Assembly: GCA_964421865.1 (NCBI GenBank)
Contig: CAYQZH010000002.1
Span: 1-51,015, forward strand
Length of the DNA stretch: 51,015 nucleotides
Direction of reading: 5' to 3'
Source: an uncultured Phycisphaera sp.
GTDB lineage: Bacteria > Planctomycetota > Phycisphaerae > UBA1845
This document shows, piece after piece, positions 2,148 through 49,767 of this stretch. The notes under the pieces were generated by a model. That model had not been told where the DNA came from and ran no database searches. It saw nothing but the letters and a program-made list of their open reading frames with translations. The translations under genes and the position numbers were made by a program. How positions within the stretch are numbered: the stretch's first letter is position 1; the number at the start of each line of letters is the position of its first letter.

Positions 2148-2879
2148 GCCCGTGTCGCTCCCCTGCGGCGGCCCGCCCGCGGTCGCGCTCCGCGTACCCA
2201 ATGTCCCGGTGGGCGCGACTCAGCGTTCCGCCGTGCCGCGGGCGCGGGGCCGGGGACATGCAGGCCCCGAGGCCCGCCACGCCCGGCCCCGCCGCCGCGA
2301 CTGAACATGGCCGGGCGGCGGGACGCCTACGGAAACGGCCGCGATCTCCGGTTATGGGATGGGGGGGGAGCGCCATTCGCGGACAGGCCGGCGAGGCGCT
2401 CGGGGCCTCCGGGGGCCCTTTCCTCCACGGGACGGCCTCCCTGGCCGCCGACGCCCGATCCTGGCCGACGCGGGGGGGCGGGCCGGGTTCTCGGGCGCCC
2501 GCCGGCGGCGCGGTCCGCCCGCGGCCCTAAGCTTGTGCGGCTACGCGGAGTATACGGGCCGCGTCCTTGTTTGCCAGGCATGTGATGCGTGTTGGAGGTG
2601 CGAGTCCTCTGCGGGCCGTGATGGTCGGAACCGCCAGGGCAGGCCAGGGTGTCCATCGCGAGGTGGAATCTGAAGGGAGCTCCAGCCCAAGACTCGGACT
2701 CGACGAACAGAAACCGGATAGAAGGCCGGTCGCGTGGGCTAAAGCGGCAATGGACGCGGATGCCAATTATCATCCGGATGTGCGATCGGTAAATCCGGCG
2801 AGCCGAAAGGCGCGCGAACAGATAGGCCGAGCCGGAAACGACGGTCGAAGGGCCGAACGGTGTGGAGGGGCAAGTAGAT

Positions 2880-15616: not shown

Positions 15617-15656
15617 GACGGCGATGGGGCCGTCGGAACCGGAGGATAAGAGGATG
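15617..15656 (+). promoter_or_regulatory. conserved leader cassette, copy 1: hairpin GACGGC-gatggg-GCCGTC, then GGAAC, SD, ATGAAGACG
   Basis: The sequence gacggcgatggggccgtcggaaccggaggataagaggATGaagacg starts 10 nt after the radical-SAM stop. A second copy lies at 15967-16010. Confidence 0.5.
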
Positions 15657-15968
15657 AAGACGAAGAAGAGTAAGATGACGGACAGCAAACTGATGAAGCT
15701 CGCGGCCAAACACGGCGGCAACTGGATCGGCGACCCCAAGTGGGACGGCGAAACCCGCAAACGGTATTACAGGATGTGCGGGCCGCTCGTCGGGCGGTTC
15801 TACGACGGGGGCTGCTGCTCGGAGCCGGCCTACCAGTCGCAGGTGGTTGCGATGACCCTCCGTCAGTTGGCGAACGCGGGCTTCACGCCGCTGTCGCGCG
15901 TGGACTTCAAGATGTACCCAATACATGGGTGTCCGGCACCAAGAGGAAGTGATGCGGTCAAGCGTTGA
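15654..15968 (+). CDS. hypothetical protein (104 aa)
   Basis: I set the start at MKTKKSKMTDSKLMKLAAKHGGNWIGDPKWDGETRKRYYRMCGPLVGRFYDGGCC behind ggaggataagagg. I recognise no family. Confidence 0.5.
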   Translation: MKTKKSKMTDSKLMKLAAKHGGNWIGDPKWDGETRKRYYRMCGPLVGRFYDGGCCSEPAYQSQVVAMTLRQLANAGFTPLSRVDFKMYPIHGCPAPRGSDAVKR

Positions 15969-16010
15969 CGGCAATGGGACCGTCGGAACAGGGAGGGAAA
16001 GATGATGAAG
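15967..16010 (+). promoter_or_regulatory. conserved leader cassette, copy 2, now heading only a 19-codon stub
   Basis: The sequence gacggcaatgggaccgtcggaacagggagggaaagATGATGaagacg begins inside the stop codon of the preceding gene. The ORF it heads (MMKTDEGSEIGKWPRGWRP) stops at 16058-16060. Confidence 0.45.
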
Positions 16011-16036
16011 ACGGATGAAGGTTCGGAGATCGGGAA

Positions 16037-16488
16037 GTGGCCGCGCGGCTGGAGACCGTGAGACCGCGGCACGGCAGTGGCGTACTCCTGTCGCCGTTCG
16101 ACCAGCAGTCGCGGGACCGGGCCCGCGTCCAGCGCCTCTTCGGCTTCAGCCAGGTCCTCGAGATCTTCAAGCCGGCCGCGCAGCGCACTTACGGCTACTA
16201 CTGCCCGCCCGCGCTCTCGGGTGAGCGGCTCGTCGCCCGCTTCGACCTGAAGGCAGACCGCAAGAGGGGCACGCTGCGCGTCCTGTCCTGCCGCTTCGAG
16301 GGGACCGCCGAATCGCGCCCCGCCAAGGCCCAAGACGGCGAGGCGGCGCGGGCTGCACTCTCTCGCTACGCCAACGCGCTCGAACTGAGGCCGACATGGA
16401 GGGCCGGGGGAGTCGCGGATGGTGCGAGCCGCACTCTCCCGCTATGCCGATGCGCTGGAACTGAAGCCGACCGGATAGCGTCTCGCCT
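16037..16488 (+). pseudogene. C-terminal fragment of a YcaQ/AlkZ-family (DUF1006) winged-helix crosslink-repair glycosylase, with a frame-breaking 3' tandem duplication
   Basis: The block LLSPFDQQSRDRARVQRLFGFSQVLEIFKPAAQRTYGYYCPPALSGERLVARFDLKADRKRGTLRV matches the family's C-terminal signature, but about 290 N-terminal residues are missing. The sequence gcactctctcgctacgccaacgcgctcgaactgaggccgac (16355-16395) recurs at 16441-16481, 86 nt later and out of frame. That second copy reads ALSRYADALELKPTG and then stops. Confidence 0.65.
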
Positions 16489-17087
16489 GACGTGCAGCAC
16501 GGTGACGGCCTTCGTGCGACGGTCACTCCACCAAGAAGCTTGAACGAGATCGGTGCCGCGGACGTCCGGACGTCCTGCGTCCGACATGACGACGGGGACA
16601 CGCGTTGCTCTCGTAGCGAGCGTAGGCCAAGGCCGCGGGTGCCCTGCCCTACCACTTCGCTCAGGTCATACCTGTTCCCGTAGGACGCAGTGGTGACCGC
16701 CGGCCAGTGCCCGCCCATCCGGGGCGTGACACTCGATGGGAACCAAGGCGAGCTCGATAGAATCCCCCGTGCAGATGCAGAACGATACTTGGATACAAGG
16801 AGGAGAAGCGAATGACAGACGGCGTTTGGCCAGGCGCATCGCCGCTTGGCTCGTTGTTCCCGCCAAGTCTTCAGAAAACCCATTTCACGCCCCTGGAAGT
16901 CCCGCGCTGGCGGCCGGTTATCGAGAAACCTTTTGGGTAACGCTGCCTTGGGCGCTCGGCAGACGTTTACAATCCCGGCCCTTCATGAGTGGTCGGGCAC
17001 GCCACTGTAGGATCTCGCCCGCATGAACGCGACATGCCCTTGCCATGATTATTTCCAAAACGCTCACCATCTTTTCGTACGAACTCG

Positions 17088-19413: not shown

Positions 19414-19680
19414 CGCGAGACGTTCATCCCGCTGGCTCACGATGTGGGTCAGCGGCTGGAGTGCGACTTCGGCCACATCTACGTCGACTTTCCCGAGGGA
19501 CGCAAACAGGTTTCGGTCTTCGTGGCGGTCTGGTCGTTCTCGAACTGTCCCTTCCTCATGGCCATGCCCACCGAGCGCACCGAAGCGATCCTGGCCGGCA
19601 TGGTCGAGGCCTTCGACTTCTTCGGAGCCGTGCCGCGCGAGGTGTGGTGGGACAAGAGCCGATCCAAGACCGCAGCGACT
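19414..19680 (+). pseudogene. IS21-family transposase (IstA) internal fragment, about 90 codons
   Basis: The reading RETFIPLAHD(V)GQRLECDFGHIYVDFPEGRKQVSVFVAVWSFSNCPFLMAMPTERTEAILAGMVEAFDFFGAVPREVWWDK matches the IstA integrase-core pattern (PGE..Q.DFG...V...G......F...L.YS...F......E.......G...AF.FFGGVP....WDN). It is preceded by an in-frame TAG (19411-19413) and both ends are missing. Confidence 0.7.
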
Positions 19681-21008
19681 GGTGAGATAAACAGCTGTCG
19701 AACCCAACGCCGGCCCCGCGCTGTCCTATTCAGCCACGCGGCCAATCGAGGCGAGCAGCGATAGTACAGTCGGGTGATCTGTCGACCGATACACCATCCG
19801 AGTAGCACATCGTCCCTGAACCGCCTCAACACCGTAACCTCCTGTGCTTCTTCTCCGCAGACCGCCGTCGCGATAAAGCAGTCAGATCTGCTTGCAGCGG
19901 CGTCAGCGACCTCATTCTCATCCTCATACTCAATGGTCATCACCGCCAACTGGCCGGCTGACCAGAGCCTTCCGAGAGCCACTTCGACTTCCCGTCGCGT
20001 CTTGTGACCCGCTGGGCAGCGCAATTCGAAAATAACTATCTTGCAGCGCTGCATGACGGCATCAGCAAAATCCAACGTCAAGCCACGGGCAACGTCGATA
20101 ATCGCTGTGGCTCTGAGACGAAACATCGCATCCGTAAAATCCGCTCCGACAAAGCTGCAGCCCGTGAATGACGTGGGTTTGAACGAGGCCTTGGCGAAGT
20201 TGCAGTTCGTAAATTTCGTATGGGAGATATTCGTACAAACCCAGCTAACACCAACAAACTGTGAATCGGAGAAGTCGCAGTCCTCGATATTCCCGAAAAT
20301 CCAACGGGTCTCATTTAGATTACACCTCAGAAAGAAGTGGCTCTTAAGTTCGGCCCTGTCAAACAGGAGGCCAGCGAAGTTTGCATTGCGGAGTGTGACC
20401 TGACCAGGAGCAAGATCGTGATACGCCTTCCACATCGAAGAATGTGGCTCAAGTGCCGTGATGAGAGCCTGCCACGGGTCCTCTATCTTATGCACTGCCG
20501 CCTGCGATTTTTGACAGATGGCAACGAGTTCGTCGTACAGTTCATCGCTTAGTTCCCTTGGAGCTCCTTCAATGAGGGCCGAAAGTGTCGTGAGCGCTGA
20601 GGCTATGTCGGCCCCGGCCTGCGTGCCTTCAGTTGCCTGAAGGTGATGTAACGACTTCAAGGCTTCTTCCAGGTATTTCGCGGCGAGATCACGAGAAGAA
20701 GCTCCCTTTATCACGTAAAGCTTGTAATGAGACACGCTTAGATAGTAGAACAGCGCCGTTTGCCGCTGGAAATCTGGGGTAGCATTGGCCGCATCACCCC
20801 GGGTCACATGCTCGATCGCCTGAGCACCATAGGATATGGCAAGTTCGTAGTTGTGCAGCGAGCCCGCAGCATGGCCTGCCAGGAAATAGACATTCGCGCG
20901 GGCGCTTGCCGACAACGCAGACTGTGATAGGAGTTGTTGAGCCAGTGTTAAGATTTTCGTTGAGTCTTCACCAGCCGCTACGGCTGCCAGCAGTGCCGTG
21001 TAGCTCAT
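19479..21008 (-). CDS. TPR-like / pentapeptide-repeat protein with a Cys-led CFIATA... C-terminal module; the extreme C-terminus is replaced by read-through into the IS21 fragment
   Basis: I set the start at MSYTALLAAVAAGED (CAT 21006-21008). The pentapeptide run is LRNANFAGLLFDRAELKSHFFLRCNLNETRWIFGNIEDCDFSDSQFVGVSWVCTNISHTKFTNCNFAKASFKPTSFTGCSFVGADFTDAMF. It is followed by CFIATAVCGEEAQEVTVLRRFRDDVL...YYRCSPRLAAWL. The last ~65 codons are antisense to the IS21 piece. Confidence 0.7.
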   Translation of the reverse strand: MSYTALLAAVAAGEDSTKILTLAQQLLSQSALSASARANVYFLAGHAAGSLHNYELAISYGAQAIEHVTRGDAANATPDFQRQTALFYYLSVSHYKLYVIKGASSRDLAAKYLEEALKSLHHLQATEGTQAGADIASALTTLSALIEGAPRELSDELYDELVAICQKSQAAVHKIEDPWQALITALEPHSSMWKAYHDLAPGQVTLRNANFAGLLFDRAELKSHFFLRCNLNETRWIFGNIEDCDFSDSQFVGVSWVCTNISHTKFTNCNFAKASFKPTSFTGCSFVGADFTDAMFRLRATAIIDVARGLTLDFADAVMQRCKIVIFELRCPAGHKTRREVEVALGRLWSAGQLAVMTIEYEDENEVADAAASRSDCFIATAVCGEEAQEVTVLRRFRDDVLLGWCIGRQITRLYYRCSPRLAAWLNRTARGRRWVRQLFISPVAAVLDRLLSHHTSRGTAPKKSKASTMPARIASVRSVGMAMRKGQFENDQTATKTETCLRPSGKST

Positions 21009-21275
21009 GATGCTCTCCCGCCTCCCAAACCGCATCCTAAGAGTTCCATCAGTGCATTTTGTCGTACCATTTCGTCTGGGTAAGTGAGGGTGCAAATTAC
21101 GCCCCTCCAGTCGTTCCTGGATACCAGTCTAGGAATACGCGGTTTCGTAAACCAAGTAAGTGGCCGCACAGCTGTTCCTCCTCCACTAAATTAGGGCCCC
21201 TGCCGCACCTGTTTGAATTGCATGGTCCAATGTACACCGGTCACCGGTCTGGGATTGGGGACAGCCCATTATTTC

Positions 21276-21959
21276 CTATTTGCTGCTCTGTTCCTTATAG
21301 ATGCCGTCCTTATCCCTGCCGTAGTTGCCCTGCGGCGTCTCGACGATGAAATAATAAAGCGGCTTATTGACGGGGTGCTGCTGAAGCCATGCTTTGGCCG
21401 CGCCATCGCTGGGTGCCTTATGGATTCGGTATACCGTGCCGTCCTGAAGGCGGTCCTCGCGGAGAAACACAACCTGTTCTACAGCGGCCGGTGCTGGCGC
21501 GGATTTCGCATTCACAGAACGCTCGGGTTCCCGATCGTTCTTCCGCCGACCCCCATGACGGGCGAAACTCTCCTGAGCAAGTGCCCACAGTTCGTGGCTC
21601 AGGTCCTCGCCACAAATAACTGCTTCGTATGTTCCCTCACGAGTTGCATAATGTCCGAAAATCAAAACCTCGGTGCAGATCAGCTTTCGGGAACCGTTGG
21701 CGACATGAATGCAGGGCAGATCGAGGAGGGCCGCTTTGGCTTGTGATTCCGTATCGAACGTATAAAGGACGAAGGGATCTTTTTTCTGCTTCACCATGCG
21801 ATCGCTCCAGTACGCGAAGGCATGTTCGAATGTGTCATGTCTCGTGCCGAGATTGTCTTTTTCGGTGAAGCCTCCCTGATGGGAGCCTGGCTGATTCCCT
21901 GCGTGTTCCTGTGGCGCTGGTGTCATGAAGCCGCTCAGCACCCTTCGTAGCCAACTCAT
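21276..21959 (-). CDS. hypothetical protein (227 aa)
   Basis: It begins MSWLRRVLSGF. There are two similar modules (FVLYTFDTESQAKAALLDLPCIHVA... and VYRIHKAPSDGAAKAWLQQHPVNKPLYYFIVETPQGNYGRDKDGIYKE). I recognise no family. Confidence 0.65.
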   Translation of the reverse strand: MSWLRRVLSGFMTPAPQEHAGNQPGSHQGGFTEKDNLGTRHDTFEHAFAYWSDRMVKQKKDPFVLYTFDTESQAKAALLDLPCIHVANGSRKLICTEVLIFGHYATREGTYEAVICGEDLSHELWALAQESFARHGGRRKNDREPERSVNAKSAPAPAAVEQVVFLREDRLQDGTVYRIHKAPSDGAAKAWLQQHPVNKPLYYFIVETPQGNYGRDKDGIYKEQSSK

Positions 21960-22000
21960 TGGGTCCTCCTCTGTTCACGTTGTCCGAACGCTCTTTGTCA

Positions 22001-24763
22001 TCATCTGTCACACGGCAGTGTGCCGATGACGATATCTGGCTCGAACTCGTAGCTGCCGTCGGAGGTCTTTATGGCTCCCTGGGCCATCTGGATGATCCGT
22101 CCCTCCGAGTCACGAGTCCACAGTATGCCGCTGTCGCCGCGCGTGACACCAGCAATGCGTCCACGCGGGCCGAAATGCCATTGGACCGTTTCCTGGTGCC
22201 CGCCGGAAACCTGCAGGAGTCCGCGGCCGGATACATGTTCGAGGCGGATGTCGAGGCCCGGACCGGCGACCTTGATGAGCCGACCGCGGTCATCGAATCG
22301 TAACTGTGCCGTACATAGGCCCCGCCTCACCGTGGATGGGTGGCCCCCCTCGTCGTAGTCGAACGAGCAAACCCCAGGCGAGCCAACGACCCCTTTCAAA
22401 TGCTCCCCTTCGTGATCATAGCGCACGGGCGAATCGCCGACAGTGGCGCGCGCCGGGCTGTTCCCGGCGTAGTCGATCGTGACGGTGCGACCGGCTGTGC
22501 CGCGCTGCGCGATCATCTTCGTACTCGAGCGCGCGAACGCGATATTCTCGTCGCCGGGACCACGAAGGGCTTTCACGAGGCCAGTGTTGTCAAAGTCGAT
22601 CATGACGCCATGCCGCAATACCCATGAGAACGTCCCGTCTTCATTAGCCACGAGATCAGGCTGAAAATCTCCGCCCTTGGGCACAAAGGCGACCGCGGGA
22701 TTCTCGGCTGGCCGTGCCTCGACGTCACCTTCGGTGCGTACGCTATTGGGGAGGTAAGCTAGGCGGTTTCCGGTTTCGAAGGGCAGGACCGTCACCTCGC
22801 GGCGCACCCTCGCACCTGGGGCGTCGCTGATCGTCTCTAGACCTTGCAGGATCGCCGGCTCAAAACTCCAGCCGCCACCGAAGGTGTAGCCGGGCGCCGC
22901 ATCGGACAGCCAGGAGCGGGCCATCGCTAGCGGCAGGACGCCCTTCCCGTTCAGCTGAGCGTCGATATCAAACAGCAGAAGATCTGCGCCGGCGACACCG
23001 GCGTTCTTCTTTGAGCCGCCCGTTGGAATTCCAACAACGATTTTCTCGCGTTCGCCTTCCTCGAATGTGCCACCTACACCCCCGCTAGCGTCGAGCGCTG
23101 CCGTGGCGCGATCGCCCTGACGCCGCACCATGCCAGAAAGATCGAGGACATACCTGTTTCCGCGATCGAAGAGTACACCGCCCATGTCAAGCTGACGCCA
23201 CTGACCTAGGCCGCTATCGCGCAACCGTGTTGGATCCAGACTGACAAATGAGAGGGCCTTCGTATTTCCCGCGTAAACCTCGAAGCGGCTTCTTTCCAGC
23301 GGCAAACCGTGGCCTTGCCAGGTTAGATCGTGAAGTGCGGTTGCACCGGTGTCTCGGGCAACCTGCTGGGCAGTGGACTTCGTCGCGAGGTTCCAGAGAC
23401 TCGGCCAGTCTCCTCGTCCCGTGAAGATCCTAGCCTCGCCACCTGCGCGGACAACCTGTTCGATCTTGGGCTTCGCCATGTCGGCTCCTACTCGAACCTT
23501 GTACAGGTCGACGGTATCTAGCGTGGTCTTTGTCAGCGAATAGGCGTACCCACCCTCGCTATGGAACATGCCATGTGTTTGCCCTCCCGGCATGACATCC
23601 TTGTATCCGTTAAAAACCGAGTCAACTGCGTGAGCATACAGTTGGGACTCTGACTTCCAACGAGGCGAGTCCTTCATGTAGTCAGCCGCATCTTTCAGAA
23701 GAGTATTTCCACTGAGATACGGATCCAGGTCTGGTCGAACATCAAAAACTATGTTTTTTCCCTGGGCCACGGCCTGCTTAGTCATTACGCTCGCATAGTC
23801 ACGGATCTCAGGTGCTGTCTTGGGATTGTCCGACGTGAACCCGCGGGCTTTCCAGTCGTGCAGGTAAATAGTCGCCACAATCGAATCACGGCCGGCATGG
23901 GCCAGTGCCATCTGCGAAACCTCCGTCGGCCCGCGTGCCGTGGCACTGTTGATGCCCGCACCGGCAATGAACAACTCCGTGCGTGACCCAGTCCTAGCAG
24001 CGAGCGCACCCGGCTCTGGAACGCTCGTGGAATAGAAGGTATCCCCGAAGATAGAAACGTTCGCGTTCAACGTCGCAAGGAGGTTCAGCACATAGTGCGG
24101 CAACAGATAGGTCCGTTCAAGGACGCCCCAGCGCAGCGCAGCTCTACCATCTGCGCTCGTTGTCTCGCATAGCGCCTCAGTACGCGGGTCGAAAATGATG
24201 GTCGGCGGCGGATTGAAGGGACCGAAGCTTCCGGCGACACGCGACAGGGCAATAGGCGGCGAGATCTCTGCTAGGACGCGCAGAAACTTCGCCGCGAATT
24301 CCGGCGTGTAATCGCGCGCGTCCTGGAACACTATGCGCAACTGATCGTTTCCTGTGGAGCTACGCGCCAAAACTGCTGAAGGGCGCTTGGTCAACGCCTG
24401 AAGATGCGCAAGTTCCGATGCGACGAGCCCCTCCCTCCGATCAGGCACAAGGTTGGCTGAAATCTCCACGCCATACAACGAAGCGGCAACACTTGCTTCG
24501 TCGTCCGTCGCGCGATTGAATTGAGCAACTAGACGCAGCCTCTCCAAGAAAGTGGGCAAACGAATGTCCCACGCTCGCCAGTTGTTGCGCCGCAGCTCTG
24601 TATCATGAGGTAGGCCCGACGCTTGGTCGTCCAGTAGGACTACATTGATGGTTGGAAGTTCTATACTTTGTTGCGGGCCGCCAGCTGCTAAAAGGGGCAG
24701 AGCTATCAGCAGTAGCGCAAGCGCCACTCCGCATTCCTGCACGCCGATCATCGTGGATTTCAT
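22001..24763 (-). CDS. 920-aa secreted protein; C-terminal YD/RHS-like repeats; possible alpha/beta-hydrolase-like nucleophile elbow
   Basis: The signal peptide is MKSTMIGVQECGVALALLLIALPLLAAGG. The YD-like repeats are VRYDHEGEHLKGV, FDYDEGGHPSTV, RFDDRGRLIKV and WTRDSEGRIIQM. The segment THGMFHSEGGYAY resembles a GxSxG elbow, but this is weak. The start ATG overlaps the upstream stop (ATGA at 24760-24763). Confidence 0.8.
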   Translation of the reverse strand: MKSTMIGVQECGVALALLLIALPLLAAGGPQQSIELPTINVVLLDDQASGLPHDTELRRNNWRAWDIRLPTFLERLRLVAQFNRATDDEASVAASLYGVEISANLVPDRREGLVASELAHLQALTKRPSAVLARSSTGNDQLRIVFQDARDYTPEFAAKFLRVLAEISPPIALSRVAGSFGPFNPPPTIIFDPRTEALCETTSADGRAALRWGVLERTYLLPHYVLNLLATLNANVSIFGDTFYSTSVPEPGALAARTGSRTELFIAGAGINSATARGPTEVSQMALAHAGRDSIVATIYLHDWKARGFTSDNPKTAPEIRDYASVMTKQAVAQGKNIVFDVRPDLDPYLSGNTLLKDAADYMKDSPRWKSESQLYAHAVDSVFNGYKDVMPGGQTHGMFHSEGGYAYSLTKTTLDTVDLYKVRVGADMAKPKIEQVVRAGGEARIFTGRGDWPSLWNLATKSTAQQVARDTGATALHDLTWQGHGLPLERSRFEVYAGNTKALSFVSLDPTRLRDSGLGQWRQLDMGGVLFDRGNRYVLDLSGMVRRQGDRATAALDASGGVGGTFEEGEREKIVVGIPTGGSKKNAGVAGADLLLFDIDAQLNGKGVLPLAMARSWLSDAAPGYTFGGGWSFEPAILQGLETISDAPGARVRREVTVLPFETGNRLAYLPNSVRTEGDVEARPAENPAVAFVPKGGDFQPDLVANEDGTFSWVLRHGVMIDFDNTGLVKALRGPGDENIAFARSSTKMIAQRGTAGRTVTIDYAGNSPARATVGDSPVRYDHEGEHLKGVVGSPGVCSFDYDEGGHPSTVRRGLCTAQLRFDDRGRLIKVAGPGLDIRLEHVSGRGLLQVSGGHQETVQWHFGPRGRIAGVTRGDSGILWTRDSEGRIIQMAQGAIKTSDGSYEFEPDIVIGTLPCDR

Positions 24764-26586
24764 TTGTGCTCCTCCGTTGTACTAAGGCCTCGCGGCCAAC
24801 GCGTGGGAATGGAAACGACTGCGTAATCGCGCCCGCCCAGGTTCGCGGTCCAGCCGTAACTTTCCGGTGTTGGGCGAGCGTGCAACACCGGCGCGGTGAA
24901 CAATGGAACGGGCACCGATCCGGAAGGAAAGGACCCATAACGTGGCGGTGCGACGACGCGCTGGACCGTGTTCATCTCCTGAGGCCGCCAATGGGTGACA
25001 ACCCCAGGCGCGAGGTTGGGCGCCGCTAAAGAACGAGCCGCAATGTACTGGTTCCGCGGCGAAAGGTTTATGCCGCCGATCAGAAATGATTCGTTGACGA
25101 AGTAGGATTCTCGCGTCGCACCAGGCGTCGTCTGTCGACTGACGAGTGTACGGATAAGGCGCGTGTGGGGTCGCGTATTTACGACCAAACGTCGGTAGTT
25201 GTGGCGAAACTGTTCGGCGGGAAACTCGGACTCTTCGTACCAACGGGCGATCTGGACCAGCTTGTGAATTCGGACCAACTCACGGAAGAGGCCCAGGTCG
25301 TTTGCGAATTCCTCGAAGTGCGCACTCATGTGCTCGCCGAATGCCGCGACGGCTGGATCATTAGCCAAGGCACGGTATTCGACGCGCATACGATAGCGCA
25401 CGAATCGCATTGAGTAGCCCTCGACGGCCACTCCGGTTTCGTCTGGCACGAACCACCATAGCCCTATCGGTCGCAGCTTGCCAACTTCCGAAGCCGCGTC
25501 TCCCTGCAGGCGCTTGGCCACAGAAAGGTAGCCCGGCACCGAGACGCTTACCGGCTGACGTGTCAGGTTGTCCTCACCGTGCGCAAGCCCTTTCAGACAA
25601 CGGTCGACTTCAAAAAGGACAGATCCCAGGTGTGTTCCGCTAGTCGACGGAGGAATATACTCGACTGGATAACGCTCATTCGCGATATCCTGCCGCAGGT
25701 TCTCCTCGCTCGGTACTCGGCCGTTCTCTGTGCCGATGCTGACGCCAGGATTCTGGCCCGCTTCCAGAATGGTTAGGGCAGTCACAAAATCATCGAACAG
25801 GAGCGGCGGCATAGCGATTGTGGAGGTCGTTCCGATCGCCTTCGGTCCCCAAATCTCGAGGCGGTCCTTTTCTTCGTTATACGTCGCGCCTTCGATGTCC
25901 TCGAACTGAGCGAAGTAATTATTGATCTCCAGCCAGGGCCAGTACGCGCCGTCGGGCGCCTGTTTCACAATCAGCCGCCGAGCATCAGCGACCCGCGCGT
26001 CGTCGCCCGCTATGAGGAGCTCTCCCTTCCCTCGGTTCAACTGCATAAACAATTTGCGGCCGTCCAAGGCCATAGTCAGCGAGTCTGTTCCAAAGTCCAA
26101 AGCGACATGATGAGTGCTGTTTGGTGCCTCCGTCGCCTGCAATGCAGTTTCTCCTGCCGCCAACAAAATGATCCTACCTCGAGCTTCTGACACCCGCGCA
26201 TCTTTCGGGTTGGCCCGAATGAAATTCTCATAATTGATGATCTCCGGATTGAGCTTCGCATACTCCCACGAGCCTAGCTTGGGCGGAAGGATAGGCTGGG
26301 ATATTCGTGCTTCTGGAATCCCACCAGCCTTTGATTCTTGAGATCGTGGTGTCGGTCCTGTCTTCGCCGCAGCCTCCGGACTGGACCCGTCTGTCGTCCT
26401 GGGCTGTACGTGAACCGCGCGCCATTTGGGCGGCTCACTAGGCGAGGACTCGCATCCGACCAGCGTTGCGAAGACGACCAACATAAGTGTGGACCTGATG
26501 AATGCACATAAAGTTATCATTCTGCTCGTATTCTGCCAGTCACAGGTCCACCTTGATTCGAAATTAAAAAAGCGAGCCACGGACAT
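24760..26586 (-). CDS. lipoprotein (~608 aa), function unknown (faint resemblance to planctomycete DUF1598-type proteins, from memory)
   Basis: The lipobox lies in MITLCAFIRSTLMLVVFATLVGC-ESS. I chose the start at MSVARFF (ATG 26586-26584) behind AAGGGGGA; alternatives are GTG 26604 (GTGA overlap with the upstream stop) or ATG 26520. The block FRELVRIHKLVQIARWYEESEF prompted the DUF1598 thought. Confidence 0.7.
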   Translation of the reverse strand: MSVARFFNFESRWTCDWQNTSRMITLCAFIRSTLMLVVFATLVGCESSPSEPPKWRAVHVQPRTTDGSSPEAAAKTGPTPRSQESKAGGIPEARISQPILPPKLGSWEYAKLNPEIINYENFIRANPKDARVSEARGRIILLAAGETALQATEAPNSTHHVALDFGTDSLTMALDGRKLFMQLNRGKGELLIAGDDARVADARRLIVKQAPDGAYWPWLEINNYFAQFEDIEGATYNEEKDRLEIWGPKAIGTTSTIAMPPLLFDDFVTALTILEAGQNPGVSIGTENGRVPSEENLRQDIANERYPVEYIPPSTSGTHLGSVLFEVDRCLKGLAHGEDNLTRQPVSVSVPGYLSVAKRLQGDAASEVGKLRPIGLWWFVPDETGVAVEGYSMRFVRYRMRVEYRALANDPAVAAFGEHMSAHFEEFANDLGLFRELVRIHKLVQIARWYEESEFPAEQFRHNYRRLVVNTRPHTRLIRTLVSRQTTPGATRESYFVNESFLIGGINLSPRNQYIAARSLAAPNLAPGVVTHWRPQEMNTVQRVVAPPRYGSFPSGSVPVPLFTAPVLHARPTPESYGWTANLGGRDYAVVSIPTRWPRGLSTTEEHK

Positions 26587-26600
26587 CCGATTCCCCCTTG

Positions 26601-28448
26601 TCACGGACCAGAAAGCTCCATTCGCCAGATCTGCCAGTTATCATTAAATTCCTTCTTTGCCCCGCGGTTGGAGATGAAGTAAACGTACTTGCCGTCCGGG
26701 CTAACCGCGGGGCGGGTATCGTGCGACCCGTTTACCGTCAGTTGCGTACGCTCAGTCCCGTCGGTCCTCATGCTCCAGATATCAAAGTTTGGTACGCCCT
26801 CTTCATTCAGGGCCTGGTTCGAGGCATATACGATTCGTGAGCCGTCGGGAGTCCAGATTGGATACTCGTAAGAGTGGTCGCCTACGGTGAGTTGTGTCGG
26901 CTTACTTCCGTCCGCGTTCATCACCCAAATTTGCCCGTGGCCGGCGTCGTCCGGCGCCACGTATGCAAGCTTCGTTCCATCTGGCGACCAAGCTGAACTC
27001 CTGCCGATGCGGATTTGAGTGGGGAGCGTGCCGTCTGCATTCGTAACCCATATCTGCGGCGCTTTGGCTTCCCGCAGGTACGAAGTGAAAGCTATTCGTG
27101 TGCCGTCTGGCGACACCGCAGGTTCGGTATCGGTAACACTGGATGGGCTATCGGTGAGTTTCGTGAAGCCTCCTTGCCCGGTCGTACGAACGCGCCAGAG
27201 GTTCACCTTGTCCGGCCGAAGACGATTTGCAGCGAAATAGACGAACTGTCCATCCGCCGAGACACATGCCTCGACATCGATTGTCGGTCCATCTGTGAGC
27301 CTCGTAACACCTTGTCCCGCCTGGCGCCAAAGATTGGCGAGCGGGTCCTTAAACTCCGGCCGCCTGAATGAGATCGAATAGGCAAGTTGTTGTTCTGGGG
27401 GCGCAACCCATAGACGCGTTAGCATGAACTCGCCGGGAACCATATCGGTCATTCGCGTTACCGAGCGTACCATCGGCTCCGTTTCGATTTCGTCTACCTG
27501 TGAGAGAACGAGCGATTCCTCAACAGCCACTCCTTCACCGCTGAACCCGAACGTACGAAGTCGTGTTCGAACGAAGCGAATTGGTTCGAGTTCCACCTTC
27601 AGTTCGCCACTCAGGGCTTGTTCGAGTGTAAGCGAGGTCGTGAACGGACTTGTATCGCCGGGGGAGATTGGCCCTTGCGGCCGTCGCCAACGGAATCCAT
27701 CTTTCCGCACGCTCACCAAGAACGTCGACCAAGGGCTCTTCGCATCCTTGCGCGTGAAAAGAAAAGCGTATTGCAGCGGCACCTGTCCAACGGACGCTTC
27801 GTTGACTGTAAACTCCGCCCCTTCCACGTTGGTGATCACGTTGACGGGTAACCGACGCCGAACCTCCGTAAGCGAGACATTCACACGTGCATGCTGGGCT
27901 TCGTCATACGAAAGGGACCGTCGCTCCGGAAGGTAATCCTCCAGCTCTACTCGTAGCGCGACTGTGCCCCACGCCGACTTGGACGACGAGCGAAGGTACC
28001 TGATCGGCACAGTGACGGGTGTCCTACTGTAATCGGACTCATTGACAAAAACGGCGGCTCCCGATGGATCGCTTTCGACTCGAACATCGAGCACCTCAGC
28101 AAGCCGCGGCAAGGTCACGTCGAGCTTCCAGGGGTTGGGCGCCACCTGAGCCGCCTGTCGTGAAAGCACGGTTTCCACCGATTCGTGGTCCGTGGCCTGC
28201 AGTGTGATCCGATGTGAAGTGTCGTCTCGCTCCCACTGAAGCCTTTGGGAGAACGGAGTTTGGCCGCGTTCTAGTCCATCAACATACACGGCTGCCCTAT
28301 TGGGGCTGGACTCCACGGACACGGTGCGTGAAACGCAGCCTATGGAGATGAATAGTGCTGTGGCCGAGACCGTGGCCAGTGACAACCAAGCACGCGGGCG
28401 TGCGCTGTGCCACCGTGATCGCGCAGAATAAATGAAGGATTGCATCAA
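26601..28448 (-). CDS. lipoprotein with three PEGA-like domains and a C-terminal TolB-like beta-propeller
   Basis: The lipobox is ATALFISIGC. PEGA-type units are VESSPNRAAVYVDGLERGQTPF, VESDPSGAAVFVNESDYSRTPV and VITNVEGAEFTVNEASVGQVPL. The propeller blades are SADGQFVYFAAN, SPDGTRIAFTSY, SPDGTKLAYVAP, TPDGSRIVYASN and SPDGKYVYFISNR. Confidence 0.85.
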   Translation of the reverse strand: MMQSFIYSARSRWHSARPRAWLSLATVSATALFISIGCVSRTVSVESSPNRAAVYVDGLERGQTPFSQRLQWERDDTSHRITLQATDHESVETVLSRQAAQVAPNPWKLDVTLPRLAEVLDVRVESDPSGAAVFVNESDYSRTPVTVPIRYLRSSSKSAWGTVALRVELEDYLPERRSLSYDEAQHARVNVSLTEVRRRLPVNVITNVEGAEFTVNEASVGQVPLQYAFLFTRKDAKSPWSTFLVSVRKDGFRWRRPQGPISPGDTSPFTTSLTLEQALSGELKVELEPIRFVRTRLRTFGFSGEGVAVEESLVLSQVDEIETEPMVRSVTRMTDMVPGEFMLTRLWVAPPEQQLAYSISFRRPEFKDPLANLWRQAGQGVTRLTDGPTIDVEACVSADGQFVYFAANRLRPDKVNLWRVRTTGQGGFTKLTDSPSSVTDTEPAVSPDGTRIAFTSYLREAKAPQIWVTNADGTLPTQIRIGRSSAWSPDGTKLAYVAPDDAGHGQIWVMNADGSKPTQLTVGDHSYEYPIWTPDGSRIVYASNQALNEEGVPNFDIWSMRTDGTERTQLTVNGSHDTRPAVSPDGKYVYFISNRGAKKEFNDNWQIWRMELSGP

Positions 28449-28704
28449 GTGCCTCCAGACTTCAGGACAAATCGCTTGCGTTCGCTACTTTGGCAACGGG
28501 CTACGCCCTTGGCCGTCTTTCGCAACGCACGCATACCGTGCGACCGAACAAGGCGAAGATTGCAGGATGCGCATGCGCACGTCTTCCCGAACGACTGGCG
28601 ATTCGCCGCAGGCTCGAAAGCAACCAACTGGCTCCTCGGCTGATCAGCCACGCTATCTCTCATCGCTGCCTCATCACTCACGCAATAGCATCGGGTTCAC
28701 ATGT

Positions 28705-29862
28705 TCAACGAAACCGCCGCACAGCGCGCACATAGTACTTGTTTGTGCGATAAAACGTGGTACCGTCCGCCGCATAGGCAACGTTACCGGGAAAGCTGGG
28801 GGGCGGGTCGGTAGCTGTCCAGTACACGTCCCCATTTTGCGAATACGTGCTGCTCACCTTCGTGACAGCACAGGAGGTAGCTTTTTCCAGAGACTGGAAT
28901 TCGCTGAGCTGCGGCAATCTCCAGTCACTGAACCCTCCCAAAGACAAAGAAGCGCAGTAGGCGAGAGCCTCCTGCTGAGTTCGTCTCAGTCCGTCGTCGT
29001 CCTTCTGCCACATGAGTCCCACACCGTGGTCAGTCAGGGTCCCATCTCCATTGTCAGTTAGACCGGTAGCCCTTACGGGCGCTTTGCCAGCTGCAACCTC
29101 GCCTTGCGTCTGCCGGAGCTTGTCAAGCATTTGCCGTGCGCCCTGCACGTACTTGTCGGTAAGCTTGATTCTCCCGTTGACGATCTGATTTGCGGTATCC
29201 ATCGCGGCGCTGATATCACCAACCGCCTTCGTACCCGTGGCGACGTTGAAGCGGCACGCACAGATCCAGAACTCATGGTCTTCCTTGACGGATGGTCTCG
29301 ACGCCAAGAGGCAGGTGAGCGCATGCCGGTCCCGGCCGGCTTGCATTAAGGCCATCGCAAAATCGTATAGGCGAACCCTGAGACCCTGTGCGATGTCAAC
29401 ACCTTGCTGCCTCTCGATGAAGGGCATCAGCCGAGCCATCAAGATTTCGCCGAGCTCTTTTCCAGGAAGTGACCGTGGCAGATGAAGATTGGGTTCTGTC
29501 CTCAATGTCTCCTCGTAGCGCACGAGCACTTGAGCGAGAACGGTGACTAGCTCAAACCGTCGGTTGTTACGAAAGTCTTGCTCGATCGAACCCCAGTCCA
29601 AACGCAGCGAATCGATCGGGAAAGTTTTGCACTCATCTGCTATGTCGTCCTTAGGCCTAGTTCGCAACATCTCATAGAGCTCGTTCGTTCCTTCGCTCCT
29701 GTCGAGGTAATCGAGAAGGTTGGGCGACGAAACCTTCAAAGGCTGCGCCTGTGGACGGGGTCTGGTAGGCGGGGAGGATTGGTGGCACGGGTCGGTCGTC
29801 GTGGTTCGCTTTTTGAATAGCCGATCAAGGAGTCCCATTGATATTCCCTTCCTGAGCCGCAC
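28705..29862 (-). CDS. protein with helical N-terminal region and C-terminal DUF1566 (Lcl C-terminal) domain
   Basis: The DUF1566 pattern is TLTDHGVGLMWQKDDDGLRRTQQEALAYCASLSLGGFSDWRLPQLSEFQSL. The probable true start is MGLLDRLFKK (29838). Confidence 0.8.
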   Translation of the reverse strand: MRLRKGISMGLLDRLFKKRTTTTDPCHQSSPPTRPRPQAQPLKVSSPNLLDYLDRSEGTNELYEMLRTRPKDDIADECKTFPIDSLRLDWGSIEQDFRNNRRFELVTVLAQVLVRYEETLRTEPNLHLPRSLPGKELGEILMARLMPFIERQQGVDIAQGLRVRLYDFAMALMQAGRDRHALTCLLASRPSVKEDHEFWICACRFNVATGTKAVGDISAAMDTANQIVNGRIKLTDKYVQGARQMLDKLRQTQGEVAAGKAPVRATGLTDNGDGTLTDHGVGLMWQKDDDGLRRTQQEALAYCASLSLGGFSDWRLPQLSEFQSLEKATSCAVTKVSSTYSQNGDVYWTATDPPPSFPGNVAYAADGTTFYRTNKYYVRAVRRFR

Positions 29863-30259
29863 CGGCCCGGGTAATGCTGTACCTCACCGCAGGGCGTGGA
29901 GCGCAGGAAAACACCTTGTCGGAGTGCATACGCTTGTTGGCGCCTGACTTTGCTCTACTTCCAGAGCTTCCACCATTGTTTTCGCCCAGTCCTTTCACTC
30001 CGCACCACGAGATCGCCGCCCGAGACCATTGCCCCGCCTGCCGATGGCAGTCCGACAGCCAGAGGCACGCAAGTACATTTGCAGGTCGATCCTGGATCAA
30101 GCGTTCAAAGCAACGCACGGCGGCCTGGTAGTCACCGCTGCGGTAATGGCCCATTCCACGCTCCTGAAGCCCGGATTCCGCCACGTACCCGTGAGGACCT
30201 GCTGCGGGTGCTTGACCGCGGTCGAATCCGAGTATCCTTCCCAGGAACTGCATGTGCAC
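29825..30259 (-). CDS. small TPR-like hypothetical protein; C-terminal third doubtful
   Basis: The sequence MHMQFLGRILGFDRG...GMGHYRSGDYQAAVRCFERLIQDRPANVLACLWLSDCHRQAGQW reads as one or two TPR units. The tail is low complexity and overlaps the start of the next gene. Confidence 0.4.
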   Translation of the reverse strand: MHMQFLGRILGFDRGQAPAAGPHGYVAESGLQERGMGHYRSGDYQAAVRCFERLIQDRPANVLACLWLSDCHRQAGQWSRAAISWCGVKGLGENNGGSSGSRAKSGANKRMHSDKVFSCAPRPAVRYSITRAGAAQEGNINGTP

Positions 30260-30414
30260 GGCTCGCCTTCTGCTTCGGTCAGGCTAACGGTCAAGCTCAG
30301 CGGCCGCCGTGAGGCGGTCGGCTGGAGCGCCTTGTTAGCCACTCAATCCACTCGCTACGTTATGGCTAAATAAACATTGTCACTGAGAACAATCGCATCC
30401 GCATATCTTCGCGG

Positions 30415-30726
30415 TCACACTCCTCTCTCAGTAGCTGAGAGAAACGCTCTGCATTCAGCAATGAAGTCCTCTTTTAGGCGCACAAGGTATTCATCTGGGA
30501 GGTTTCCACCTTGCATGGCAGTCTTTGCCGCCCCTTCAGCCAGAGGATCGTTGGTCTGTCGCAGGAGCTTGGCTATCTCATTGAAGCCGCTTAGAATCTC
30601 CTGTCTTGTTCTGCATCTTGCGAGTATCGAGAGACATTTCTCTGTGTTCCTGCGCTGCTGGGCGAGCAGGTTTTGCACGGGGGTGGTTCCTCCAAATAGC
30701 CGTTCCAAGAAGCTCCTCGCGGACAT
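30415..30726 (-). CDS. hypothetical helical protein (103 aa)
   Basis: The sequence is MSARSFLERLFGGTTPVQNLLAQQRRNTEKCLSILARCRTRQEILSGFNEIAKLLRQTNDPLAEGAAK... I recognise no family. Confidence 0.5.
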   Translation of the reverse strand: MSARSFLERLFGGTTPVQNLLAQQRRNTEKCLSILARCRTRQEILSGFNEIAKLLRQTNDPLAEGAAKTAMQGGNLPDEYLVRLKEDFIAECRAFLSATERGV

Positions 30727-49100: not shown

Positions 49101-49274
49101 CCGCGCCGGCGGACACTCGCGACGGCAATGTCGTCGTGCCCGCCGGGACCGAATCGGACGTCCCGGTGAAGCCCTGGACAGGCGTCCGGAGGCCGAAACG
49201 GGGCCGATCAGCCAGGAACCAGCCAGGAAGGCGAACCGGACGCGCGTAAGTCCTTATTATACAATAGGTTACAA

Positions 49275-49624
49275 TGGAGGCGGGGGGAATCGAACCCCCG
49301 TCCCGCGACGGCATTCAGGACGCTTCTACGTGCATAGTCGATCGTTTGTTTCTCGGGTTGGTGGACGCCGGTCGACAGGCTGCCACCTTCCCCAGCCCGA
49401 CTGTCTCTTACCCGCGCGCCGTCAGGCGGCGCACGCGGGCCAGCCTGCTGGTGTCGTCGGGCGAATTAGCAGGCGTCATCCGCGCGACGGGCTACGGGTT
49501 TTTACGCAGCCATGGCATACGAGTAGTTGCCATATAGTTTTTCGCCAGGTGTTTTACGAGGCCTCCTGACCACCTCGGCACGCCGCATTCCTTGCAACTC
49601 GCCCGGTCGAATCCAATCGCCCCC
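49275..49624 (-). ncRNA. ssrA: tmRNA (ssrA), ~350 nt, CCA not encoded
   Basis: The minus-strand 5' end is GGGGGCGATTGGATTCGACCGGG. The 3' end is GGACGGGGGTTCGATTCCCCCCGCCTCCA. The acceptor GGGGGCG/CGCCTCC contains the G3:U70 alanine identity pair, and the T-loop is TTCGATT. The internal tag frame GGC GAA AAA CTA TAT GGC AAC TAC TCG TAT GCC ATG GCT GCG TAA (49546-49502) encodes GEKLYGNYSYAMAA. Confidence 0.88.
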
Positions 49625-49683: not shown

Positions 49684-49767
49684 TGCGGCTGAGAGGAGTC
49701 GAACCTCCACGTCCTTTCGGACACTGGATCCTAAATCCAGCGCGTATGCCAATTCCGCCACAGCCGC
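49684..49767 (-). tRNA. tRNA-Leu, anticodon UAG (class II, long variable arm)
   Basis: The minus strand reads GCGGCTG TG GCGG AATTGGCATA CGCG C TGGAT TTTAGGA TCCAG TGTCCGAAAGGACGT GGAGG TTCGACT CCTCT CAGCCGC A. The acceptor has 7 bp, the anticodon loop is TT-TAG-GA, and the variable arm forms GTCC/GGAC. Confidence 0.9.

Follow-up and report, generated by a model that had tools for sequence, protein, structure and literature searches.

We analysed a 51,015-nucleotide (nt) stretch of contig CAYQZH010000002.1 (the window), which belongs to a metagenome-assembled genome of Phycisphaerae (Planctomycetota) of 4.26 Mb and 89.6% completeness. The chorismate synthase of this genome shares 93% identity with that of a Planctomycetota metagenome-assembled genome and 84% with that of a Phycisphaerae one. 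Three co-directional open reading frames (ORFs) on the minus strand fill positions 22001-28448 and are referred to here as genes A, B, and C, in the order in which they would be transcribed (Table 1). At full extent, they span 26601-28448 (615 amino acids (aa), from a TTG at 28448), 24760-26604 (614 aa), and 22001-24763 (920 aa), in agreement with an earlier note on this DNA. The same note had interpreted the three genes as a single envelope triad and had considered the pairing of a TolB-like scaffold with a YD-repeat protein to be unusual. Export signals are present on all three products, in agreement with that note: A and B have lipoboxes (FISIGC and LVGC, respectively), and C has a Sec-type N-terminus, as judged from pattern and hydropathy only. 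Comparison with related loci, which come exclusively from metagenome contigs, many of them short, indicates that the functional unit is not a triad and points instead to a two-gene B-C module that is horizontally mobile.

Table 1 Features of the A-B-C locus and its surroundings in the window.
Feature	Position	Strand	Description
Gene A	26601-28445	-	614 aa; lipoprotein, two PEGA domains and a PD40 (TolB-type) beta-propeller
Gene B	24760-26586	-	608 aa; 614 aa if translated from the GTG at 26604
Conserved domain of B (residues ~205-600)	24787-25974	-	Predicted local distance difference test (pLDDT) score ~80-95
B/C junction	24760-24775	-	GGAGGAG Shine-Dalgarno sequence, then ATGA stop/start overlap
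Gene C	22001-24763	-	920 aa; modular protein, predicted to be Sec-exported
Constant N domain of C (residues 35-252)	24008-24661	-	pLDDT ~90
Middle cassette of C, type 1 (residues 253-526)	23186-24007	-	Ser402 codon at 23558-23560
Constant tail of C (residues 527-920)	22004-23185	-	DUF6531-like segment and ~11 YD hairpins ("mini-Rhs")
227-aa gene	21276-21959	-	41 nt after C; no Pfam match
Genes with the N-terminal motif flanking A-B-C	21279-30726		227-aa gene, 377-aa Lcl_C gene, 142-aa TPR gene, and 103-aa gene
Transfer-messenger RNA (tmRNA), full length	49272-49624	-	Rfam, 155 bits; missed by ARAGORN
tRNA-Leu	49684-49767		Adjoins the tmRNA

Conservation and mobility of the B-C pair

The junction between B and C in the window has the form expected of translational coupling. 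B ends in the codons GAG GAG CAC AAA TGA, the ATG of C overlaps the TGA stop (ATGA at 24760-24763), and the GGAGGAG sequence ends 5 nt before this ATG. Stop/start overlaps had previously been proposed at both junctions of the locus; the one between B and C stands. The GTGA at 26601-26604, a potential overlap between A and B, is also present, but a Shine-Dalgarno sequence, AAGGGGGAA, lies 6 nt before the ATG at 26586, making this ATG the better start for B. B probably begins 14 nt past the stop codon of A, leaving the A/B overlap unused. Similarly, the ATG at 28445 is more probably the start of A than the TTG at 28448, because GGAGG lies 6 nt before it. A promoter and terminator scan gave counts no higher than in shuffled sequence.

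Loci drawn from the relatives of B and C were compared by all their ORFs. In the window and in 10 more loci with an intact pair (L003, L004, L016, L018, L019, L021, L022, L024, L025, and L121), the gene immediately upstream of C, in the same orientation, is B. Where the gene calls give both ends, the two genes are separated by 16-73 nt in these loci, compared with -4 nt in the window, and the B domain of L018 is duplicated in tandem. Three further loci (L023, L027/L028, and L122) hold degraded copies of the pair. A transposase gene directly precedes a remnant of B in L023, where C is split in two; in L027/L028, B is followed by a 62-aa ORF that corresponds to the signal peptide and first residues of a C protein; and in L122, the contig ends after B with an 81-aa ORF and a DDE transposase. 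L002 begins inside C and is uninformative on the position of B.

The adjacency of B and C is kept at 37-60% protein identity and across phyla, while the surroundings change. The loci range from 43 to 65% G+C, and their named sources are Phycisphaerae and the candidate division CSSED10-310; every source annotates the proteins as hypothetical. B and the N domain of C are conserved to the same degree, with mean pairwise identities of 50% and 52%, against 22% for the middle part of C and 38% for its tail. Both families are rare: 5.8 billion protein clusters yielded 22 relatives of B and 17 of C. B is missing from 40 related genomes, four species of the same genus among them, and C is absent from 400 genomes of Planctomycetota, weak YD matches aside. 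C was not found in 185,579 GTDB species genomes either, in a search of limited sensitivity that used two peptide patterns only, and the viral contigs of IMG/VR and the plasmids of PLSDB contained neither B nor C. At least four loci have integrase or transposase genes close to B-C; in L024, an IstB-type ATPase is matched weakly.

Gene A

The co-occurrence of three families, on which the idea of a triad depended, was found for two of them: B and C are adjacent wherever both positions can be read, but no homologue of A is present in 14 other B-C loci, several of which include 5-10 kb of upstream sequence. A is a local neighbour, and the conserved unit does not include it. Since its PEGA/PD40 family co-occurs with B-C nowhere else, the pairing of a TolB-like scaffold with a YD-repeat protein appears to be a local accident of the island.

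The scans of A, B, C, and their neighbours against Pfam, NCBIfam, and PADLOC gave matches only for A and flanking genes and none for B. A matched PD40 (2.7e-33) and PEGA (5.8e-16) in Pfam, and its PROSITE-type lipobox (SATALFISIGC) places the lipid-attachment cysteine at Cys37. In the 40 relatives (four of the same genus), A was matched only over residues ~375-614, the propeller part, which has 19 matches within the source genome alone. Because relatives match only this generic propeller, A is best regarded as a one-off architecture assembled from common parts. An assignment of A as TolB was rejected: the score against TIGR02800 was 108.6 bits, far below the equivalog cut-off of 343.15, only the propeller part was matched, and there is no Tol-Pal operon context. 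A is probably co-transcribed with B.

Gene B, a lipoprotein with a predicted new fold

The canonical lipobox of B (MLVVFATLVGC) ends in Cys45. In the relatives, the lipid-attachment cysteine is followed by a short helix motif, ENFIRxNP, and then by a domain of ~390 aa. Most relatives of B are lipoproteins of 440-460 aa, and a lipobox is present in 15 of the 20 relatives with complete N-termini (14 of the 26 rows of the B alignment fit the pattern, and one more was added by eye). The protein in the window is longer by two inserts of low model confidence, one a linker rich in Pro, Ser, and Ala that follows the cysteine and the other a stretch of ~65 aa that follows the ENFIR helix. His319, Glu326, Asp328, Arg329, Lys332, Asp339, and a block of the form FRELVRxHKLxQxARWY are invariant in the family. 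An AlphaFold2 model of B, with a predicted TM-score (pTM) of 0.71 and high confidence in the conserved domain, is of mixed alpha/beta type and contains no barrel. The sequence of B has no match in Pfam, NCBIfam, PADLOC, or PDB, including a profile search against PDB, and the best Foldseek hit of the model in PDB had an E value of 0.75, which is no match. On the evidence of the model, the domain is a predicted fold not seen before.

Two candidate identities for B were rejected. One relative matched DUF1598 at an E value of 0.054, which proved to be noise when followed up in the source genome. A role as the TpsB partner of a two-partner secretion system would call for an Omp85-type barrel and POTRA domains; B has no Pfam match, and the model shows no barrel. 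In an hhalign comparison of B and C, the C-terminal segment of B (LIGGVDLSPRNYY ... YAVVSIP) aligned with the start of the C tail (GGILFDKGNIY ... VGIP) at a P value of 4.7e-4 and a probability of 33%; this is a tentative lead on which we do not rely.

Three relatives of B deserve separate mention. P0018, encoded on a 32.6-kb contig, has 437 aa and agrees with B at every position of the searched region; a start at Met178 of the long B ORF would give this length. The short gene call is probably wrong, because the ENFIRANP motif and the lipobox lie upstream in the same frame. In the other two relatives (L121:1099-2853 and P0039), long N-terminal arrays of ankyrin repeats replace the lipobox; the ankyrin-bearing B of L121 still precedes a C gene.

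Gene C and its constant parts

The anatomy of C was derived from an alignment of 32 members and an AlphaFold2 model (pLDDT 77, pTM 0.67). The protein consists of a signal peptide, strongly hydrophobic and of Sec type, a constant N domain, a middle cassette, and a constant tail. The N-terminal region had earlier been described as large and unknown. It comprises two parts, the constant domain and a swappable cassette.

Asp45, Glu100, Arg127, Asp140, Gln141, Arg143, Gln147, Asp148, Asp192, and Glu216 are invariant or nearly so in the N domain. A profile of this domain retrieved 33 proteins from 1.84 billion representatives, 30 of them below 1e-30. All 30 strong matches carry the domain at their N-terminus (residues ~30-260), and the full-length members are 790-1180 aa long. 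The search returned no distant relatives, and there was no sequence match in PDB. Among these representatives, the N domain is specific to the C family. In agreement with the earlier note, the 920-aa protein falls into no characterised family as an ordinary case.

The tail opens with the conserved elements GGILFDKGNxYxLD ... LPFAxPRF ... FGGxWTFEP, which resemble a DUF6531 plug. DUF6531 (PF20148) itself matched residues 601-635 of C at an E value of 0.0088 (16.8 bits against a cut-off of 24.1), and three of the 32 family members have this match at E <=0.01. In the model, 22 strands form ~11 hairpins at residues 691-914. The presence of a C-terminal YD/RHS-like block, already recognised from the sequence, is borne out by several searches. 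The family profile matched Rhs cores in PDB at an E value of 1.2e-13, through the YD part alone; Foldseek matched the model to 8qjc and 7pq5, Rhs cores of type VI secretion systems (T6SS), at 6e-12 to 1e-11 over ~335 columns; and Pfam RHS_repeat was found in 13 of the 32 members (best E value 1.9e-8), with the C protein of the window, searched singly, staying below Pfam significance.

In Tse5, the shell comprises 40 hairpins, and a DPxGx19DPxG autoprotease plug forms its end (PMC10684867). By comparison, the tail of C in the model would make up roughly one fourth of an Rhs shell and would not suffice to close a cocoon. A regular expression for the DPxG...DPxG autoprotease motif matched none of the 32 members, and a Pfam scan of C revealed no PAAR, VgrG, SpvB, or other delivery domain. 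The C proteins end directly after the repeats with a constant C-terminus and no C-terminal toxin; the absence of a toxin tip and of a recognisable immunity gene after C, as reported before, was confirmed.

The exchangeable middle cassette

The middle cassettes of the C family are 116-525 aa long, and the 32 members fall into 15 groups without BLAST links between them. L016 and L003 provide the clearest comparison. Their DNA is 89% identical from inside B to residue 231 of C and 84% identical from residue 529/569 of C to the stop codon, and nothing aligns between; this pattern is that of a clean cassette replacement, which we ascribe to recombination. The break points lie close to linkers of low confidence in the model (residues 251-260 and 516-528). 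Since B retains 89% identity across the swap, it does not track the cassette, and any contact between B and C would be made through the constant parts of C. No gene that varies with the cassette, no downstream gene common to the type-1 loci, and no orphan cassettes near C genes were found.

The cassette of the window is of type 1, which has 11 members by BLAST clustering, nine of which were aligned. Ser402, Asp452, and His486 are invariant in all nine. The context of the serine is [H/Y/D]-S-[E/V]-[G/C/A] and reads GHSEG in one member. In the model, Ser402 is located between a strand (396-401) and a helix (403-409), Asp452 follows the strand 443-450, and His486 follows the strand 475-483. The small-x-Ser-x-small turn at Ser402 and the order Ser-Asp-His are those of an alpha/beta hydrolase in the predicted structure. 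The invariance of the three residues, with their canonical order and positions at strand ends, is the reason for considering the type-1 cassette a Ser-Asp-His hydrolase, to which we assign about an even chance. The possible GxSxG-like elbow noticed earlier (FHSEGG) is thus retained as an invariant serine at a strand-to-helix turn, but the searches did not confirm a hydrolase fold. The type-1 cassette has no stand-alone relatives and no match in the 400 Planctomycetota genomes.

Genomic island and neighbouring genes

The G+C content of the window is 53-63% at 17-44.5 kb and 65-73% in the flanks, in line with the low-G+C setting reported for the locus. The A-B-C island abuts a tmRNA, and the low-G+C stretch runs toward the 3' end of this RNA. 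A direct repeat of the tmRNA 3' end that could mark the island border was not found elsewhere in the window at a length of 12 nt or more.

Of the other loci, only L023 has a counterpart of the 227-aa gene downstream of C: a frameshifted gene that immediately follows C and shares 70-82% identity with it. Nothing else is common to the B-C flanks across loci, small genes included, and the 227-aa gene is an occasional companion only. This gene begins with MSWLRRVLSG, an instance of the motif M-x(1-6)-[WFL][LF]-x-[RK]-[LIV][LF]-[GSK], which was defined on the window. The motif is rare, occurring at only six ATG starts in the 4.26-Mb genome, four of which flank A-B-C, and it is also found beside B-C in three unrelated loci (L022:7221-7454; L023:6466-6789; L025:8273-9133 and 15633-16751). 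These are four genes in ~160 kb of B-C loci, compared with two in the remaining 4.2 Mb of the window genome, the background having been counted in that genome only. The Lcl_C/DUF1566 protein bears the motif in place of a signal peptide.

Several other features were observed around the pair. In L019, L027, and L122, genes for CHAT or caspase-type (Peptidase_C14) proteases are located less than 10 kb from B-C, and L122 additionally has three DUF4384 genes directly upstream of B; the window has no such protease gene. In the window, positions 2652-2817 (plus strand) match domains D1-D4 of a group II intron (RF02001, 99.6 bits, E value 3e-19). A 538-aa protein encoded at 19479-21095 (minus strand) combines pentapeptide repeats with a CFI-box-CTERM domain (NF041770, 6.5e-19) and weakly matches the Hailong effector HalA.

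Proposed mechanism and alternative explanations

We propose that B-C is a mobile two-gene envelope module in which C is a carrier with an exchangeable insert, a reading that we consider slightly better than an even chance. Translational coupling on a shared message would keep the amounts of B and C in a fixed ratio, and both proteins would cross the inner membrane. The lipid-anchored B would bind the constant parts of C and hold, present, or help export it. The middle cassette would be the working part, acting on a target outside the cytoplasm, and the cassette of the window may, with about even chances, be a hydrolase of the esterase or lipase type. The YD tail would probably serve in binding or assembly and not in enclosing a toxin. 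A may be co-transcribed with B-C, but the module would not require it.

Several observations weigh against this proposal or parts of it. A canonical alpha/beta hydrolase would be expected to bring up hydrolases in Foldseek, but the top 50 matches of the whole C model include none; these searches of PDB and BFVD used the whole model, and matches to Rhs and beta-repeat structures dominate them. The sole related match is a weak one to a DDHD domain (E value 0.0099, TM 0.24). Profile searches with the type-1 cassette against Pfam and PDB sequences were empty, and the serine is missing from most other cassette types. The AlphaFold2 models are based on shallow alignments of 19 and 26 sequences. Among the 20 B relatives whose N-termini are complete, five have an ordinary signal peptide and no lipobox, so that lipid anchoring is not obligatory in the B family. 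Finally, A lies only 14 nt upstream of B and may have a local functional link to the pair.

This short spacing (or the 4-nt overlap, if used) is also one of the arguments for keeping the three genes together, with the TolB-like A as the scaffold of a three-part envelope machine. The genes are co-directional and all three products have export signals, and L004 has beta-propeller (WD40) genes near B-C, albeit on the opposite strand and of another family. The missing co-occurrence largely refutes the idea, since the 14 other B-C loci lack a homologue of A. Relatives match the generic PD40 propeller alone, which has 19 matches in the source genome, and the TolB score reaches 108.6 against 343 bits; we regard such a machine as very unlikely. 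Chance adjacency, in which B and C are unrelated hypothetical genes hitch-hiking on mobile DNA, is still less credible to us. The family is small (~30 clusters) and known from metagenomes only, and linkage on an island can persist for a while without function. However, the adjacency is kept at 37-60% identity and at 43-65% G+C, across phyla and in changing surroundings, the window has a translational-coupling junction, and in the decayed copies loss or degradation affects both B and C.

More elaborate explanations assign a different task to the cassette. Were B-C a classical polymorphic toxin-immunity system, the cassette would make C an antibacterial toxin of the Rhs type, with B as its immunity protein, similar to the Tli lipoproteins of T6SS lipase effectors. 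Domain swapping between close relatives is a hallmark of polymorphic toxins (PMC3482391), C has YD repeats and a cassette that may be a lipase-type hydrolase, and the module sits in mobile islands. Furthermore, ankyrin repeats, which are known as a class of immunity domains (PMC3482391), are fused to two of the B relatives. However, the variable part of C is internal and not C-terminal, the autoprotease motif is found in 0 of 32 members, there are ~11 hairpins against 40 in a closed shell (PMC10684867), and C lacks PAAR, VgrG, or other delivery domains. B is located upstream and remains 89% identical after cassette replacement, so that it is not a cassette-specific immunity protein, and neither a downstream gene common to type-1 loci nor orphan cassettes were found. 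We consider this explanation unlikely; in a variant of it, B may act as a general protective factor. The layout of the pair, in which a single hypervariable domain is set in a constant frame and the operon also encodes an invariant partner, would fit surface recognition or adhesion equally well, with the cassette not as an enzyme but as the specificity determinant for kin, a partner, or a ligand and B as the membrane partner. The lack of an immunity gene and of the serine in most cassette types agrees with such a role, and carbohydrate binding has been proposed for YD repeats (PMC3482391). Nevertheless, the cassettes differ because unrelated sequence replaces them wholesale; they are not graded variants of a common fold, and the strictly invariant Ser, Asp, and His of the type-1 cassette point to catalysis. 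The polymorphic receptor TraA, which works with TraB in myxobacteria, is an analogue for recognition of this kind, but B-C has no sequence similarity to TraA/TraB. Recognition or adhesion has a low probability in our assessment. The motif-bearing small genes suggest yet another possibility, to which we give a small chance: B-C may be a new kind of envelope display or export system, in which B would handle a mini-Rhs carrier with a cartridge-like cassette, and the small neighbours may be its clients, regulators, or protection factors.

If the carrier with an exchangeable insert is the true function of C, YD repeats can do more than encapsulate a toxin, and cassette exchange reaches beyond C-terminal toxin tips. 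The study adds three uncharacterised domains (the B domain, the N domain of C, and the type-1 cassette), with predicted structures and conserved residues to mutate. Because the B-C family is rare and confined to uncultured bacteria, the immediate impact is limited.

Comparison with known systems

A shares its C-terminal PD40 beta-propeller with TolB of the Tol-Pal system. Unlike TolB, its N-terminus consists of PEGA domains and a lipobox, with no TolB N domain, and no tol or pal genes are present among its neighbours. The Tle lipase effectors of the T6SS pair with periplasmic lipoprotein immunity proteins (Tli). B-C is similar in combining a possible GxSxG-type hydrolase with an adjacent lipoprotein gene, and one C member reads GHSEG, but B does not vary with the cassette. 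Neither sequence nor fold similarity to Tle or Tli was found in B and C, and the annotated neighbours include no T6SS genes.

The APD1/APD2 proteins of Amoebophilus likewise have a family-specific constant N domain directly after the export signal and highly polymorphic domains downstream (PMC3482391). Those proteins are themselves lipoproteins and are polymorphic at the C-terminus, whereas in C constant modules flank the polymorphic part on either side and the lipoprotein is a distinct, conserved partner. The closest Rhs/YD proteins are T6SS Rhs effectors such as Tse5, RhsA, and the Tre23 carrier, WapA, and the BC components of Tc toxins. The similarities to Rhs/YD polymorphic toxins are the YD beta-hairpins, found by both profile and fold, a putative DUF6531-like segment, below the Pfam cut-off, before the repeats, the replacement of one domain between close relatives, and the typical location on mobile islands. 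In contrast to these toxins, the variable domain of C precedes the repeats instead of following them at the C-terminus, and ~11 hairpins, compared with 40 in Tse5 (PMC10684867), would form no closed cocoon. C has a Sec signal peptide in place of a delivery domain and lacks the DPxGx18DPxG plug. No immunity gene varies with the cassette, and a dedicated upstream lipoprotein is always present.

To our knowledge, all studied Rhs/YD systems follow one plan, with a trafficking domain, a shell, an autoprotease, a C-terminal toxin, and an immunity gene alongside. We found no description of the B-C architecture in the literature. Judged by sequence, B-C is a rare, undescribed gene pair that appears to be a variant of the YD/Rhs polymorphic proteins breaking this usual plan.

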